Source: Escherichia phage KS_A8
Sequence record: PP627279.1
Reading direction: 5' to 3' (one strand)
Length of the DNA: 59,853 nucleotides
Each line of letters opens with the position of its first letter. Within the stretch, counting starts at the first letter, position 1. The translations under genes were made by a program, and so were the position numbers. The notes below the pieces were generated by a model. The model made no database searches. It saw only the letters and a list, made by a program, of their open reading frames with translations, and was not told where the DNA came from. Positions 4,572 through 53,169 of the stretch are shown in pieces.

Positions 4572-4693
4572 GTTGACATCCCGACGTCCCTGATGTTAAG
4601 TTTCAACACATCAGGGACACGGGTTCCTAAACAGCCTTCCACGGGGAAAGGCTACCAACAGTAAACAAATCAATCCTTTTCCTGGAGACAAGT

Positions 4694-34382: not shown

Positions 34383-34451
34383 CTTAAATCCTCTAGTGAA
34401 AAAGAAAGCGCCTCATTGGGCGCTTTCATTATAACGTGATATGTTTTGATA

Positions 34452-35261
34452 TTACAAGCCGTTCAGGGCTTCCGGTACTGGTACAGGTACGCGACCAGTC
34501 ACACCATTAAATTTCTTCCAGCGTGCATACTGGGTTTTAACGGTATCTTCGTTCAGACCATGGCGACCAGCCAGGTTCAGAACATAAGAGATCGGAGCAG
34601 GCTGACCCAGCGTAGCGCTAATCTGGTCCATCAGAGCCCAGGCACGACCGCAGGAAGTTTCCGGTTGCGGGCGACGAACACCGTTCTGTTCGGGCATACG
34701 ATTAGCTTCTTTTTCTTTCTCGCGGAGCTCTTTAGCGCGTGCTTTTTCCGCTTCTTTTTCTGCCTGTTTTGCAGCACGGATCTTGTCTTTGAAGCCTTTA
34801 ATAGTAGCTTCCAGACCATCCACCAGACCCTGGGCAGAAGTTACAGCACCGGACAGGTCTTCACCTTTAGACTTCTTAACGACAGCTTTCAGCTCTTTCA
34901 GAGCTTCTTTAATGGTCTTCAGGTTTGCAGATCCCTGAGTTTCTGCTTCCGTGATCTGTTCAACAGTGCTTTCGTCGGTGACGGTAGCCAAAGAGTTTTT
35001 CAGAATTTCAGCAGCGTTAGCAATCGCATTAAATTTGTTTTCCGCTTCAGCGCGGATTTCAGCTTGTTTCTTTTCAGCGGCAGCTTTTTTCTCTGCTTCT
35101 TTTTTCTCTTTTGCTACGCGTGCAGCTTCAGCAGCAGCGGCTTTCTTAGCTTCTGCGTCATTCGCAGTAGCTTCTTTCTTTGCAGGTTTAGCAGATTTTG
35201 CAGCGGCAGCGGCGGCTGCGGCAGCAGCTTTTTTGTCTTCAATGTTGCTCATTCTCTTCAC
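34452..35261 (-). CDS. Ala/Lys/Glu-rich low-complexity protein with conserved C-terminal domain (histone H1-like composition)
   Basis: 269 aa; poly-Ala/Lys N-terminal half; C-terminus ...TQYARWKKFNG similar to the C-terminus of the 51220-51834 product. Confidence 0.35.
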   Translation of the reverse strand: MKRMSNIEDKKAAAAAAAAAAKSAKPAKKEATANDAEAKKAAAAEAARVAKEKKEAEKKAAAEKKQAEIRAEAENKFNAIANAAEILKNSLATVTDESTVEQITEAETQGSANLKTIKEALKELKAVVKKSKGEDLSGAVTSAQGLVDGLEATIKGFKDKIRAAKQAEKEAEKARAKELREKEKEANRMPEQNGVRRPQPETSCGRAWALMDQISATLGQPAPISYVLNLAGRHGLNEDTVKTQYARWKKFNGVTGRVPVPVPEALNGL

Positions 35262-35379
35262 TCCGAATTGTTATGGGTTCGTTTGTTACCAACGGGGTTA
35301 AATGTACCAAAGGATTTTGTGACACGCAACCCCTTATCTGAACATTTTTAAAAATATTTTTGATCAAGCTTAGAACTTA

Positions 35380-35874
35380 CTAGCTCTTTGCCCCTCTGCC
35401 CGGCGTCCATGCAGCTTGCAATGCGGATTGCTCACAAACGACCCTGGCACCGGAAATAATACCACCCTCCCGTTCAGCATCGTATTTGACACGGGCAGGT
35501 TTCCAAAGTCCTTCATCCATTGACGGAACGTATTGCCCAATTTGAGGTGAGCAAAAGCCTTGGATATCGTATTCCACACAGAATTCGGCTTGTGCGCTGA
35601 TTTGGGCGTGATCCAGGATTGTTTCTGGAAGTTGCGTAAAGTAATCAAACAAAATGCGCTCAACGATTTCCCGTTCATAAGGTGCAGCTCCTAAGTTTTC
35701 TGTCAAGTTAATATAAAGCATTTGAAGATCAACATCTTCAAGATCATGTAAATCGTCTACTGGTGTCACCAGTGTTGACTCAGGGCAACAAATAATTCCA
35801 AGTTGGTGTAGTGTCAGCCAATTGGGATGCTTTGCCAAGAGTTCAAATTTATCTGTATCAATCAGGACGTACAT
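35380..35874 (-). CDS. hypothetical protein
   Basis: 164-aa acidic ORF downstream of the Ala/Lys-rich gene. Confidence 0.3.
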   Translation of the reverse strand: MYVLIDTDKFELLAKHPNWLTLHQLGIICCPESTLVTPVDDLHDLEDVDLQMLYINLTENLGAAPYEREIVERILFDYFTQLPETILDHAQISAQAEFCVEYDIQGFCSPQIGQYVPSMDEGLWKPARVKYDAEREGGIISGARVVCEQSALQAAWTPGRGAKS

Positions 35875-35933
35875 TGCAACCCCCTATAAATAAGTAATGC
35901 CCCAATAGTAGGGGCATTAAATGTTGAAGTCAA

Positions 35934-37916
35934 TTAGAACGGAACGTAATCCGGATCATCTACTTGCACAGGATTAACCACATTGTTCACCGTTATACCT
36001 TGCGTATTCTGCGAAACAATATCGTCCCAGCTCACATCATCATTATAGCTTGGACCTTCTGTTGTTCCATCCTGCCCGTATACTTTAACCTGAATAGCTT
36101 CGTCGTCCTGTGGTGCTTCAAACTTACCGAAACACGTACCATCATAATCATAGTTCAAAATCTCAGGCCATTTCTTATTGGTATGAACTTTGATGTATTT
36201 CGGCGTTTTGAGCATCGCAGCAACATCAAGGGCTTCTTCAATAGTTTGTGGTAAAGGAAGATGCGTCCTTTTCTTCCACCATGCAACCGCTTTACGACCA
36301 GCCCAGTCGCCATGCAGCAAAGCTACCCATTCGCTAAATATTTTACTACCGCAATAATAAGTCACCTTCATTGTTGGAGGTTTGGAGCTGTCATTGCGTT
36401 TAGTGTGCTTCGCATAAGTGACATGCGTGACTTTAAAGTCTTCAACTACCGGAATGTCCTGTTTGATCAATGCTTCGGTACTTGCTGCCTTTTTAAGTTT
36501 CGTCTGGAACTTAAACTCATGACCGCAAAATCCTTCTTTAACATAATCCGTTCCACGTAGTCTGAATCCCTTCAAATATAATTGTTGAACTTGTTCCTGT
36601 GTAACGCTGTCCATAGGAATTGGTGCAAAGCCACCGCAATAGCGAGCAGATGCATGATTATACGACCCGCACACATCGCATTCTTTAACCGGAGCAGTAC
36701 CAGCACCTTTTTCGCCCGGGCGCTTAGGTTTAACAGGGTCGTTAATAGGCCCCAAACGGCGCGTATTACCGCTGAAATCCAGTACAAGGCAGTTTTGCTT
36801 AGGGCTTGCTGCAATAGCTTGCAAGCGACCTTCCTGCGTGGAAAGATCAAAGCCCTCCGCATATACCGGACGCGTACCGCGACCCAACATCTGAACCCAT
36901 AGCACCGCCGACGCAGTGGGGCGGAGCATGATAATTAGATCGAGCATCGGATGGTCGAAACCTGTGGTTAAGACGTTGTTGTTTGTCAATGCTCGAAACT
37001 CTCCACGCTTGAACTTTTCAATAATTTCATCACGCTCTTTTGCATCAAGCTTTGAGTGAATACATCCGCAACTAATACCCATATCGTTCAGCATATCACA
37101 CGCATCTTTAGCGTGTTCAATACCAGAACAAAATATAAGCCAGCTTTGACGGTCTTCACCACATTCAATGGCTTCCTCAAGTGCGCGGAGTGTTGCGTCG
37201 TCGCGGTTTACCGCACTTTGCAGCTCGCTTTGAATAAACTCACCGCCGCGTTTCCCTACACCATTGAGGTCCAGTTCCATCTTTGTACGCTTTGGCACAA
37301 CCGGAAGCAAATAACCTTGCTCCAGGAACCAGTTAAAGGCTTCATGGGTAGTCGCATCAAACGTTACTTTATCAAATAAAGCATCATCGTCTTCGTTTTC
37401 CTTAACAATTGAGCCGTAACCCAGTCGATAAGGTGTAGCGGTAAGACCGATAATTTTTAAATACGGGTTAACTTCACGCAATGCTGCAAAGAACTTCTTA
37501 TACATTGTTGCATCACGCGGACTAATAAGGTGCGCTTCATCCACAAAAATTAGATCTACCTTGCCGAACTTTTTAGGATGCTTAGCAACAGATGCGATCC
37601 CCGCAAATGTGATAAGATTATAAACTTCTTTACGCTTCAAACCTGCGCTGTAAATACCTGCTGGCGCTTCAGGCCAGACTTTCATTAATTTATCATAGTT
37701 TTGTGCAATTAACTCTTTGACATGAGTTAACATCATTACGCGCTGGTTTGGATACCATTTATAAAGCAGATCGAGGAACCCCGCGATAACGAGCGATTTT
37801 CCTGTCCCTGTTGGTAACAGGATCAAAGGGTTCCCCGCGTTACCCTTTTCAGCATCAAAATAGCGGAATACGCTATAAACTGCTTCCTGTTGATAATCGC
37901 GGAGCTGCATAATCAA
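35934..37916 (-). CDS. SF2 DNA helicase (DEAH box) with C-terminal Cys cluster
   Basis: RDYQQEAV Q-motif, Walker A LLPTGTGKS, motif II VDEAHLIS, C-terminal CDVCGSYNHASARYCGG. Confidence 0.75.
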   Translation of the reverse strand: MIMQLRDYQQEAVYSVFRYFDAEKGNAGNPLILLPTGTGKSLVIAGFLDLLYKWYPNQRVMMLTHVKELIAQNYDKLMKVWPEAPAGIYSAGLKRKEVYNLITFAGIASVAKHPKKFGKVDLIFVDEAHLISPRDATMYKKFFAALREVNPYLKIIGLTATPYRLGYGSIVKENEDDDALFDKVTFDATTHEAFNWFLEQGYLLPVVPKRTKMELDLNGVGKRGGEFIQSELQSAVNRDDATLRALEEAIECGEDRQSWLIFCSGIEHAKDACDMLNDMGISCGCIHSKLDAKERDEIIEKFKRGEFRALTNNNVLTTGFDHPMLDLIIMLRPTASAVLWVQMLGRGTRPVYAEGFDLSTQEGRLQAIAASPKQNCLVLDFSGNTRRLGPINDPVKPKRPGEKGAGTAPVKECDVCGSYNHASARYCGGFAPIPMDSVTQEQVQQLYLKGFRLRGTDYVKEGFCGHEFKFQTKLKKAASTEALIKQDIPVVEDFKVTHVTYAKHTKRNDSSKPPTMKVTYYCGSKIFSEWVALLHGDWAGRKAVAWWKKRTHLPLPQTIEEALDVAAMLKTPKYIKVHTNKKWPEILNYDYDGTCFGKFEAPQDDEAIQVKVYGQDGTTEGPSYNDDVSWDDIVSQNTQGITVNNVVNPVQVDDPDYVPF

Positions 37917-49989: not shown

Positions 49990-50657
49990 AAATCCTCCTA
50001 GTCAACTGGTGAAGCCACTATAAAACAGGCATTAGCTATTTGCAAGGATTGTTTTGATATAGTGCTTAGTGGCGTACATAGTGGAAAATTTGCGTATAGT
50101 ACGCGGTTACTAGCTTTGTAAAAGTTTGCCACTATAAACCACTATCTCACTATTCACTAATTTTTATTTTTACACAGAGCAAAGTTTATAAGTTTATGTT
50201 GCTCCCCTTAACCCCTTATGTAAATCTAAGAATTAGTAGTAGTAGTGAAAACGTGTAAATGCCACTATCACTACTATACTATTAATTCTCTAACATTTGG
50301 TGGGGTATACCCCCCTATAAACTTATAAACTTTCAGTCAACTAACTAAAATAAACCAAATTAAAATAATATTAATAATAAGTATAAATATATATAAAATA
50401 AGGATTTATTATTAATGTATATAGTACCTATTGGTATTATTTGACGAGTTTATGGTCATTATATAAACTCTATAAATTTTCATAAACCTGAACGGATGCA
50501 GATCAAAAATGAGAAGTCAAGTGCTTTTGAGGGAAATTTATTGAACTATTGTGATCGGAAGGTATATCAAGCTATAATGCGCTTAATCGCGGGATATTGG
50601 AGGAGGACTTTATTGCGCGGTTAACCGGACCAGTAGGAGGGCTGGCCCGGCAGAAGT
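49990..50657. promoter_or_regulatory. 668-bp AT-rich non-coding region with CCACTAT repeats, inverted repeats and an extreme AT tract (candidate origin/promoter array)
   Basis: No ORF with an RBS; at least six CCACTAT/ATAGTGG copies; 18-bp inverted repeat AAAGTTTATAAGTTTATG / CATAAACTTATAAACTTT about 125 bp apart; GGGGTATACCCCCC palindrome; roughly 80 bp of near-pure A/T (50340-50425). Confidence 0.4.
50017..50045 (-). promoter_or_regulatory. sigma70-like promoter for the leftward gene at 49989
   Basis: On the minus strand TTGCAA-N17-TATAGT, with the -10 formed by one of the CCACTATA repeats. Confidence 0.35.
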
Positions 50658-51219: not shown

Positions 51220-51834
51220 TTATGCGTCCAGGCCGTTGTATTTGCGCCAGGCGTAGAACTGAATGGCTACCGTAGTCCCGTTGTAAGAAGGCATTGCAGC
51301 TTTCATCTCTTTCAGTTCCGGCGTGCGGCCCAGTTCAGCTAAAAGTTTGTCGCCCATTGCCCACACTTCGGCGGTTTTTCCTTTCAGAGGCTTGCGAGCG
51401 CCATTTTTGAAATCACAGCGAGCAGCTTTTACATCCTGTTTTGGCGCGGCAGCTTTTGGCTCTTCAATTTTGATTTCAGAAACCGGCTTGGCAGCTTTTG
51501 CGTGTTTCATATCTTTCTCTTCCTCCTGCTCCAAAGCTTCGAGGCAGCTTTTGACAATTTCCGGATTTACCATCGGACGCAGTACCGAGACGCTGGCTGC
51601 TGGCGCGGCGGTCGGTGCTGGGACTTTCTGCTCCGGCTGTTGCGCTTTTTCGTGATCGCGCAGCACCTGAAGGACTTCCTTTTCGACGATGTAAAAACCG
51701 ATATCGTCCTGATGGATTAACTGTTCGTGTGCATCGCGTGCAACCTGGCCCCAGCGAGTTTTTAGAGCGCGGCGTGCATTCGTTTTCATGGTGTAGCGCA
51801 TTTTATCCTGTTCGCGGTGAGTTACTTTAGACAT
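51220..51834 (-). CDS. Ala/Lys/Glu-rich protein, paralog of the 34452-35261 product
   Basis: Start set at MSKVTH (RBS AAGGAG); low-complexity centre and C-terminus ...FYAWRKYNGLDA matching ...QYARWKKFNG of the other gene. Confidence 0.35.
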   Translation of the reverse strand: MSKVTHREQDKMRYTMKTNARRALKTRWGQVARDAHEQLIHQDDIGFYIVEKEVLQVLRDHEKAQQPEQKVPAPTAAPAASVSVLRPMVNPEIVKSCLEALEQEEEKDMKHAKAAKPVSEIKIEEPKAAAPKQDVKAARCDFKNGARKPLKGKTAEVWAMGDKLLAELGRTPELKEMKAAMPSYNGTTVAIQFYAWRKYNGLDA

Positions 51835-51907
51835 GGTATAGCTCCTTTCGTTAAAGTTAGTTTGCTTATTACTGCCCACCGTAATGATGAGCAGTGTATA
51901 AGAAAAC

Positions 51908-52156: not shown

Positions 52157-52225
52157 GATGTATATCCTCGTTTTGTTTAAGTTGACTTATTATTGCCCAG
52201 TCAGATCAACTAGGCAAGATATAAA

Positions 52226-52438: not shown

Positions 52439-52589
52439 CGTGATATTGAATAGGCCAAAAGTGCGATTTTGATATTGTTTTGCATCTAGTGAAAATTATG
52501 CTTGCCATGCATATTTAGCACTAATGGCCTAACTAACATCACATTATCTGGCGTATTCGCGCGGGCGCACACATGCTTATAAGGTGGTG

Positions 52590-52715
52590 CCGGATCGACC
52601 AGGTGGGAGCGGTGCACAGGATCGACCAGGGGCATCCGGTGCCCTGCGTGTGCGGAGCCTACCAGGTGGAAGCAGCTCCTGCGTGTGCCGGAAATACCAG
52701 GGGCGCGCGAGCCCA
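52590..52715. repeat. GC-rich degenerate direct repeats in the divergent control region
   Basis: GGATCGACCAGG at 52592 and 52619; ACCAGGTGG at 52598 and 52671; ACCAGGGG at 52625 and 52696; CTGCGTGTGC at 52644 and 52679. Confidence 0.4.
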
Positions 52716-52756
52716 TGCACTTTACAAAATATTTTTATAAAAAGTGCAAAAAGGTG

Positions 52757-53101: not shown

Positions 53102-53169
53102 GTTTGTTTATACAATGGGCATTAATACAGTGCCCATTAATAAGCTAACTAATCCTATCGAGGTATATT

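Follow-up and report, generated by a model that had tools for sequence, protein, structure and literature searches.

Phage "histone-like" proteins such as phi29 p6 and SPO1 TF1 are small, very abundant and early-expressed, and they coat or bend phage DNA; TF1 belongs to the HU family and prefers the modified, hydroxymethyluracil (hmU)-containing DNA of its own phage, and phi29 p6 has its own fold. Plasmid proteins of the KfrA type (IncP-1 RK2, IncU RA3) combine a DNA-binding head with a long alpha-helical tail and are autoregulatory and cytoskeleton-like (PMC7821693, PMC7783346), and rare helix-turn-helix (HTH) modules of polyvalent proteins have been predicted to bind double-stranded DNA (Iyer et al., 2017, PMC5512222). 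Here we set beside these systems a gene of Escherichia phage KS_A8 (sequence record PP627279.1), the analyzed stretch of which, 59,853 nucleotides (nt) in length, is referred to below as the window. The gene lies at 34452..35252 on the minus strand and its product is designated p1; the product of a paralogous gene at 51220..51834 on the same strand is designated p2.

According to our analysis, p1 may best be understood as an abundant, non-virion, architectural DNA-binding protein of Queuovirinae-type siphophages, a reading to which we assign a probability of roughly 0.4. The protein combines an Ala/Lys/Glu-rich N-terminal half (below, the tail) with a C-terminal module of ~70 amino acids (aa), which is a new domain family, undescribed in current databases. 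The case for DNA binding is built on this C-terminal domain: its modeled basic hairpin and HTH, its occurrence in tandem and in MuF and ParB contexts, and its sub-threshold similarity to PF18780. The first-pass annotation, made from the sequence alone, had also guessed at nucleic-acid binding, and the guess agrees with ours in its outcome; the reasoning behind it, which started from the overall composition, does not hold.

Judging by its identity to Escherichia phages PLYYY01, OddieOddie and KS_W4 (~98%) and to phage Seurat (92%) in the region comparison, the window is a Seuratvirus (Queuovirinae) genome. Its structural genes occupy the plus strand from ~1 to 23.9 kb, followed by a leftward block of replication, recombination and 7-deazaguanine genes (24.1-52.4 kb) and by a rightward block of small genes beginning at 52.8 kb. 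Both p1 and p2 are encoded on the minus strand inside the long leftward block, as had been noted in the first pass; counting from the divergent early intergenic region, the p2 gene comes third. The features of the p1 gene are as follows.

34452..35252, minus strand: p1 coding sequence, 266 aa and a stop codon, ATG start; homologue of Seurat gp44 and member of phrog_11298.
35261..35264, minus strand: Shine-Dalgarno sequence GGAG of p1; a ribosome-binding site is annotated at the same place in Seurat.
34698..35252, minus strand: Ala/Lys/Glu-rich helical N-terminal half, aa 1-185, delimited by composition, AlphaFold2 helices and 78 homologues; it is made up of a poly-Ala/Ala-Lys-Glu helix, a second Ala-Lys-Glu helix and, between the two, an amphipathic helical stretch (aa ~73-152).
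34491..34697, minus strand: core domain, aa 186-254, comprising the predicted beta-hairpin 'PEQNGVRRP' and, after it, an HTH-like bundle of three helices with 'TQYARWKKFNGVTGR' at its end.
34455..34490, minus strand: short conserved Pro-rich C-terminal tail VPVPVPEALNGL, with 'GRVxxPxP' kept in relatives.

The longest minus-strand open reading frame (ORF) at this place, 34452..35261, is GTG-initiated and has 269 aa in its own numbering. Since this GTG falls within the Shine-Dalgarno GGAG (35264..35261), and since the ATG at 35252 lies 8 nt after GGAG and is the start annotated for Seurat gp44, we take p1 to have 266 aa; the Ala/Lys/Glu-rich gene reported earlier thus exists, with its start moved from GTG 35261 to ATG 35252. 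Full-length hidden Markov model matches in PHROG assign p1 to phrog_11298 (E=5.7e-112) and p2 to phrog_22313 (E=1.9e-141), both of which are labeled "unknown function." On the plus strand, an ORF of 301 aa (34446..35351) runs antisense to p1 in exact codon register, and its codon adaptation index (CAI) is 0.28, against 0.58 for p1. This ORF stays open because p1 uses no TTA, CTA or TCA codons. It is spurious, as had been stated before, and its cause is codon bias together with composition, not low complexity alone.

The core domain follows the pattern P-E-Q-N-G-V/I-R-R-P ... C-G ... W ... D ... L-G-Q-P-A-P ... G-L-N ... Y-A-R-W-K/R-K-F-N/H-G-V-T-G-R, in which the N, G, P, W, D, N, W and G positions are kept without exception by ten highly divergent sequences. 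The AlphaFold2 model of residues 151-269 reached a mean predicted local distance difference test (pLDDT) score of 87, with 91-97 in the core blocks, and it shows a basic beta-hairpin formed by the QNGVRRP segment and then three helices. In this model, helix 2, the Gly-Leu-Asn turn and helix 3 ('EDTVKTQYARWKKF') appear to follow the classic HTH pattern; the tri-helical bundle, the Gly-containing turn between helices 2 and 3 and the likeness to known HTH domains place the modeled core in the HTH/winged-helix fold class.

Database searches gave little beyond the family itself. Neither p1 nor p2 nor the isolated domains matched anything above threshold in Pfam, NCBIfam or PADLOC, Foldseek against the PDB gave nothing with E<0.6, and the BFVD matches were solely uncharacterized members of the family. 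Whether started from the single domain or from the family profile, sequence searches of the PDB returned only the non-significant 'HRNGIKKPK' of eL29 (E=0.2), a segment at the N-terminus of that protein that contacts ribosomal RNA and that the p1 hairpin 'MPEQNGVRRP' (34671-34697, aa 186-194) resembles. The only recurrent Pfam signal in the family is PF18780, the homing-endonuclease-associated repeat (HNH_repeat). It does not match p1 and scores 16.9 bits (E=0.008) with the p2 core, below the gathering threshold of 26 bits; at E<=0.01 it was found in 6 of 85 p2-type relatives (best 24.5 bits, E=3.4e-5) and in one of 78 p1-type relatives, sub-threshold throughout. An HNH nuclease domain was found neither in p1 and p2 nor in the scanned multidomain relatives.

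The same core ends the paralogue, for which two features were delimited.

51220..51834, minus strand: p2 coding sequence, 204 aa and a stop codon, member of phrog_22313, in which a Pro/Ala/Lys linker joins the same core to a different N-terminal domain.
51226..51417, minus strand: p2 core, aa ~140-203, 'FKNGARKP...IQFYAWRKYNGL', recognized by BLASTP, hhalign and sub-threshold PF18780 similarity.

The annotated p2 start (51834) is backed by its relatives and by phrog_22313. The C-terminal domain of p1 aligned with the C-terminus of p2 with 30% identity over 69 aa (BLASTP E=2e-6), the p1-family profile matched the p2 sequence with a hhalign probability of 86% (E=5e-6), and both proteins matched phrog_21588 through the shared core (E ~1e-7). 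The C-terminal domain that the first-pass annotation had proposed to be common to the two products is therefore borne out by significant pairwise alignment.

A word-indexed homology search with the 87-aa domain alone found a single match, and a profile search was used instead; at E<=1e-3, it returned at least 1522 homologues, none of them with a Pfam domain and most of them on contigs of 40-70 kb. Further architectures were found by an exhaustive phmmer search with p2. Two MuF (Phage_Mu_F) polyvalent proteins, P0249 (783 aa) and P0278 (973 aa), each contain the module twice as well as an HExxH region in their C-terminal part; in P0278 the module stands between a ParB-like DGHHR segment and the HExxH domain, and the family (A1) profile matches this protein with a hhalign probability of 96.5% (E=7e-10). 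Three tandem copies make up P0229 and P0255, and two copies joined by Ala/Lys/Glu linkers are present in P0235 and P0241. In a Brevundimonas diminuta contig (L094, 5539-6249), the module is fused to an unrecognized N-terminal domain of ~140 aa, and the fusion gene adjoins a ParB_N-N6_N4 methylase gene and a serine recombinase gene. The tandem use, the company of ParB, MuF and methylase functions and the weak PF18780 similarity together point to a putative DNA-binding module.

As for the N-terminal domain of the Brevundimonas fusion, a D...QxK motif seen by eye led us to consider a PD-(D/E)xK nuclease, which found no confirmation in Pfam, NCBIfam or the PDB and was rejected. Many Betaproteobacteria have integrase/AlpA/AAA_25 islands that encode a nearly identical p2-type protein of ~135 aa (N-terminal domain 'TYTKRENARRAG...VRFGW' and core) next to a type II restriction-modification pair. 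The protein was seen on contigs L096, L098, L099, L101, L104 and L108, and in Zoogloea, Accumulibacter, a Methylophilaceae genome, Dechloromonas, Nevskia and Stutzerimonas; the island on L099 comprises an integrase, an AlpA-type HTH protein, an AAA_25 protein and the type II restriction-modification pair. This distribution suggests a widely transferred integrative element. The homologues from Vibrio phage AL-2 (L005, 2857-3528) and Rhizobium phage RHEph04 (L006, 2887-3489) have signal-peptide-like hydrophobic N-termini (MNKLALLALPLFASTGFG... and MRKLYLSTAALLAGVCFS...) that were not seen in the other homologues inspected, and these probably reflect mis-called start codons, although they may be a real lineage-specific feature.

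The abundance assumed for p1 is suggested by its expression signals. With weights after Sharp and Li (1987), p1 has the highest CAI of the 80 window ORFs (0.583; the core alone, 0.548), against 0.567 for the major capsid protein, 0.525 for the DUF669 single-stranded DNA-binding protein (SSB) and 0.456 for the scaffold; most ORFs lie at ~0.20-0.45. The signals around the gene are these.

35301..35329, minus strand: predicted sigma-70-type promoter of p1, TTGCGT-17-TACATT.
35344..35360, minus strand: A/T-rich UP-element-like 17-mer AAAATATTTTTAAAAAT, 14 nt upstream of the p1 -35 element.
34404..34427, minus strand: strong intrinsic terminator directly after p1, with a 9-bp GC-rich stem and a T-run, annotated at the same place in Seurat.
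34457..34428, minus strand: promoter-like TTGTAA-18-TATAAT facing QueE and overlapping the p1 terminator.
35895..35933, minus strand: terminator hairpin and promoter-like TTGACT-17-TACTAT upstream of the gp45-like gene (35380..35874).

The pattern TTGCNN-N17-TANNNT occurs in 41 of 66 distinct p1-like upstream regions, with the -10 element ending 37-66 nt before the ATG, compared with 0.007 per region in shuffled sequences and 1/66 in the coding control. It is not enriched window-wide (17 matches, 13.5 expected). Generic sigma-70 scoring is weakly enriched, 53% of the upstream regions reaching a score of at least 8 against 31% of the shuffles, and the p1-like leaders are G-poor (15% G). The sole other copy of the UP-like 17-mer in the window (52726..52742) lies 14 nt upstream of TAGACA-17-TACTAT before the rightward early genes. 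The TTGACT-17-TACTAT at 35895..35933 is a possible second promoter reading into p1. Taken together, these signals indicate a dedicated host-polymerase promoter and very efficient translation, so that p1 would be made in stoichiometric rather than catalytic amounts; on codon usage and sequence signals it is apparently very highly expressed.

At 35895-35933, 34404-34457, 4572-4693, 51835-51907, 52157-52225 and 53102-53169, the window also has compact units made up of an overlapping hairpin and sigma-70-like promoter, with the -10 element in the stem-loop or just ahead of it. Several of these units, placed between small early genes, read TTATACA - hairpin - TAATAAG. The units look like terminator/promoter cassettes that would insulate neighboring genes.

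An alternative explanation is that p1 is a sequence-specific transcription factor, acting through the HTH on few operators as an autoregulator or as a regulator of the deazaguanine operon or of middle or late genes. This is consistent with the modeled fold, with the p1 gene having its own promoter and standing directly before the promoter and terminator of the QueE operon, with the "transcriptional activator" label on some GenBank homologues, and with the autoregulatory role of KfrA-type proteins of similar architecture (PMC7821693). The label, which appears as "transcriptional activator (FtrA)" in some records and "hypothetical" in others, has no support in Pfam or NCBIfam, and we rejected FtrA as an identification. 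Regulators do not usually reach the codon adaptation of capsid protein and SSB; no repeated operator-like motif common to the p1 upstream region and the late and Que promoters was seen, only the UP-like 17-mer being shared; and the gene persists in contig L068, where no Que genes follow. We regard a regulatory role as unlikely on this evidence, while considering it the strongest competitor.

Alternatively, the core might bind protein or RNA rather than DNA, in which case p1 would be an abundant adaptor or inhibitor directed at a host target such as RNA polymerase, the ribosome or a nucleoid protein. The company of the module argues against this, as its partners are DNA-related (ParB-like segments, MuF polyvalent proteins, methylase neighborhoods, HNH-repeat similarity) and the match to a ribosomal protein, eL29, was not significant. 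We consider such a function doubtful, and somewhat less probable than regulation.

The position of the gene raises a further alternative, in which p1 is an accessory of 7-deazaguanine DNA modification that recruits DpdA to DNA or prefers preQ0-modified phage DNA. Six distant reference phages (JenP2, Knedl, R7M, AL-2, RHEph04 and a Stenotrophomonas phage) all have the gene between the helicase and queE, preceded in each by an intergenic gap of ~100 nt. In the 80 viral loci from IMG/VR over which synteny was counted, the p1-like gene stands immediately upstream of QueE in 77, with the QueE start at a median of 361 nt after the core start, and a helicase lies upstream of it in 75. A second, p2-like copy occurs ~1.4 kb upstream in 43 of these 80, giving the order helicase - p2-like - gp45-like - p1-like - QueE; in Seuratvirus, the p2 copy is located in the earliest leftward operon instead. 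Furthermore, the family is largely confined to phages with queE/C/D, folE and dpdA. The link of p1 to the modification genes is statistically very strong and yet not absolute, because two contigs break the arrangement: in L068, the p2-like/p1-like pair is kept and followed by genes of a DNA-polymerase module, with no Que genes within 10 kb, and in L079 a p1-like gene stands in an unrelated context. The link may be one of inherited gene order, since the synteny also takes in the helicase. A terminator separates p1 from QueE, and p2 and its relatives are also met with in genomic islands and in polyvalent proteins that have no relation to Que genes. Phage DpdA together with the preQ0 genes is also said to suffice for DNA modification in E. 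coli, as Hutinet and colleagues reportedly found in 2019, which counts against the need for such an accessory. An accessory role in modification is thus improbable, in our opinion.

The two ideas can be combined, and p1 could be a phage "chromatin" protein that recognizes or marks its own preQ0-containing genome, much as SPO1 TF1 prefers hmU DNA, and makes of that DNA a protected substrate for replication and packaging or guides DpdA along it. This is speculative, and we hold it to be a little less probable again. If it were true, the placement before QueE would be a functional link and not inherited gene order, and Ala/Lys/Glu stalks resembling single alpha-helices would set the spacing between bound molecules.

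The tail had been the basis for calling p1 histone-H1-like and for proposing non-specific DNA binding from its composition, and neither proposal withstands a closer look at its charges. H1 tails are disordered polycations with roughly 40% Lys and few acidic residues. In p1, residues 1-186 (in the 269-aa numbering) contain 26% Ala, 18% Lys, 14.5% Glu and 0.5% Pro, and the net charge is only +7 over 186 aa, with nearly as many acidic as basic residues. The tails of the 78 viral-contig homologues have a median length of 106 aa, 70% Ala, Lys and Glu, and a median net charge of +4 (+0.036 per residue); hydrophobic residues make up 7%, and there is a mild excess of opposite charges spaced i/i+3 and i/i+4 (mean z 1.7). 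Read from the sequences, these patterns are a signature of putative ER/K-type single alpha-helices or Ala-rich helices. The AlphaFold2 model of full-length p1, based on a 42-sequence alignment, has an overall pLDDT of 82 and places helices at 32-89, 97-127 and 134-183 with pLDDT ~82-93. Because the tail is a Pro-poor polyampholyte that is predicted to be helical, its composition is no argument for non-specific DNA binding.

The side on which the tail is attached also varies. It is N-terminal in the Seurat-, Nonag- and R7M-type proteins and C-terminal in the annotated proteins of Knedl, AL-2 and RHEph04, and it is nearly absent from a 105-aa homologue in a Stenotrophomonas phage. Since its position varies while its composition persists, what is conserved in the tail is its physical character, not its sequence.

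That p1 is a histone-H1-like polycation compacting DNA non-specifically through this tail is very improbable: apart from the richness in Ala and Lys and a very coarse architectural echo (a globular winged-helix-like domain with a low-complexity tail), H1-type peptide repeats (KPAA/SPKK/AAKK) are absent from the tail, which has only weak GCN-codon repeats (score 30-38), and p1, p2 and the isolated domains have no Pfam match to the Linker_histone or HU families, so that p1 is not an H1 relative.

Packaging of p1 in the virion and its injection with the DNA, as might be imagined from the module in MuF head proteins and from the label "outer capsid protein" on the homologue in one GenBank record, is hardly credible either, since p1 is encoded in the replication block, opposite to the structural genes, and the virion proteome of Alteromonas phage R7M (14 proteins, namely 13 with a predicted structural function and the hypothetical ORF28) does not name the p1 homologue vBAcoSR7M_50 (PMC8265664). 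This homologue is not the reported hypothetical protein because it is annotated "transcriptional activator." The capsid label is undiscussed in the paper on the phage concerned, and we rejected it as unsupported. No published function for the p1 gene was found; the papers on Seuratvirus, Vid5, iggy, R7M and CSP1 have no functional data on it.

If p1 is the architectural DNA-binding protein proposed here, its gene would form a short transcription unit bounded by a terminator and read by the host RNA polymerase from a dedicated sigma-70-type promoter, and translation of the mRNA would be very efficient. The C-terminal module of ~70 aa would touch DNA through the basic beta-hairpin arm and the tri-helical HTH, the last helix of which bears the invariant Y-x-R-W-K/R-K motif. 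The Ala/Lys/Glu helical half might act as a rigid stalk or as an oligomerization element, spacing or bridging bound molecules, and in this way p1 would coat or organize replicating phage DNA. In p2, the same module on a different N-terminal domain would be expressed from the earliest leftward operon.

Several points weigh against this proposal. The domain architecture, the paralogy, the conservation and synteny and the expression signals are observed, whereas DNA binding, the role of the stalk and the abundance of p1 are inferred, the last from codon usage and signals only. The similarity to PF18780 stays below threshold and is present in just one of the 78 p1-type members, and the net charge of the core domain is modest (+4). 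If p1 is an abundant DNA binder, it could just as well be a sequence-specific regulator, and its almost constant position next to QueE might instead point to a role in modification.

The Queuovirinae and related phages serve as models of 7-deazaguanine DNA hypermodification and are common in E. coli, Pseudomonas, Vibrio and marine collections. The p1 gene is among their most conserved non-structural genes and, by every sequence signal, among the most strongly expressed. Its definition as an HTH on a stalk makes p1 a testable candidate for organizing or protecting modified genomes. In addition, the module of ~70 aa is portable, being found in an early paralogue, tandem arrays, genomic-island proteins and MuF polyvalent proteins.

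Some neighboring genes and regions of the window also deserve mention. The gp45-like protein encoded between the helicase and p1 is acidic, has 164 aa, belongs to phrog_7864 (unknown function) and has no Pfam match; by tblastn, it was found in at least 22 of the 80 loci, ~1.1 kb upstream of the core. Its gene may be co-transcribed with p1, and its product is a candidate partner. The helicase (35934-37916) ends in an acidic tip, '...DDPDYVPF', and the helicase of contig L068 (6873-8711) in '...DDFDDDIPF'; the C-terminal tip of E. coli SSB is DFDDDIPF, suggesting that the phage helicase mimics the protein-interaction tail of SSB.

A 668-nt AT-rich non-coding region (49990-50657) near the primase gene and ~0.6 kb from p2 holds five of the seven CCACTAT sites of the window (50015, 50078 on the minus strand, 50129, 50139 and 50262) and several inverted repeats, and it looks like a putative iteron-type replication origin. 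Within the AT-rich divergent early intergenic region there is a GC-rich island of ~180 nt (52540-52720) with the direct repeats GGATCGACCAGG and CTGCGTGTGC, each present twice. A 76-aa ORF over this island (52486..52716, minus strand) looks spurious, and the island has no Rfam match, as Rfam found no RNA family anywhere in the window.

Compared with known systems, the fold class of the core and the head-plus-stalk design are of known kinds, and the family, the hairpin-HTH module and its place beside 7-deazaguanine genes are undescribed. The likeness to linker histone H1 and to the bacterial H1-like proteins AlgP and Hc1 is superficial: in these, too, a winged-helix-like domain is joined to a low-complexity Ala/Lys-containing extension, whereas the p1 extension is charge-balanced, helical, Pro-poor and free of H1-type repeats, and p1 resembles the GH1/GH5 domain neither in sequence nor closely in structure. 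With PF18780, the p1/p2 module shares a short three-helix build and the pattern '...LGR.P...(helix)...F/Y..W.K..G'; phage proteins use either one, alone or in tandem, presumably to bind DNA. The p1/p2 module differs in that all family matches remain below 26 bits, no HNH nuclease is attached, and the N-terminal beta-hairpin 'QNGxRRP' is specific to the p1/p2 module family. The same core is found twice in MuF-ParB-...-metallopeptidase polyvalent proteins, whose DNA-binding modules (PMC5512222) it resembles; unlike these proteins, p1 is free-standing and encoded in the replication module, and its homologue is unreported among the R7M virion proteins.

In its physiology, p1 would resemble phi29 p6 and SPO1 TF1, with no homology to either, given that its abundance and DNA binding are as we suppose. 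The closest architectural analogue is KfrA, which likewise has a small globular HTH head on a long, Ala-rich, highly charged alpha-helical tail. In p1, however, the domain order is reversed, with the head C-terminal; there is no sequence relationship and no match to KfrA_N (PF11740), which gave weak matches in just 2 of 85 relatives; hydrophobic residues in p1-type tails (7%) are too few for a canonical coiled coil; and no partition genes lie near p1. The relation is therefore one of analogy and not of membership, between two mobile-element-encoded proteins of which KfrA has both oligomerizing or architectural and autoregulatory roles (PMC7821693, PMC7783346).

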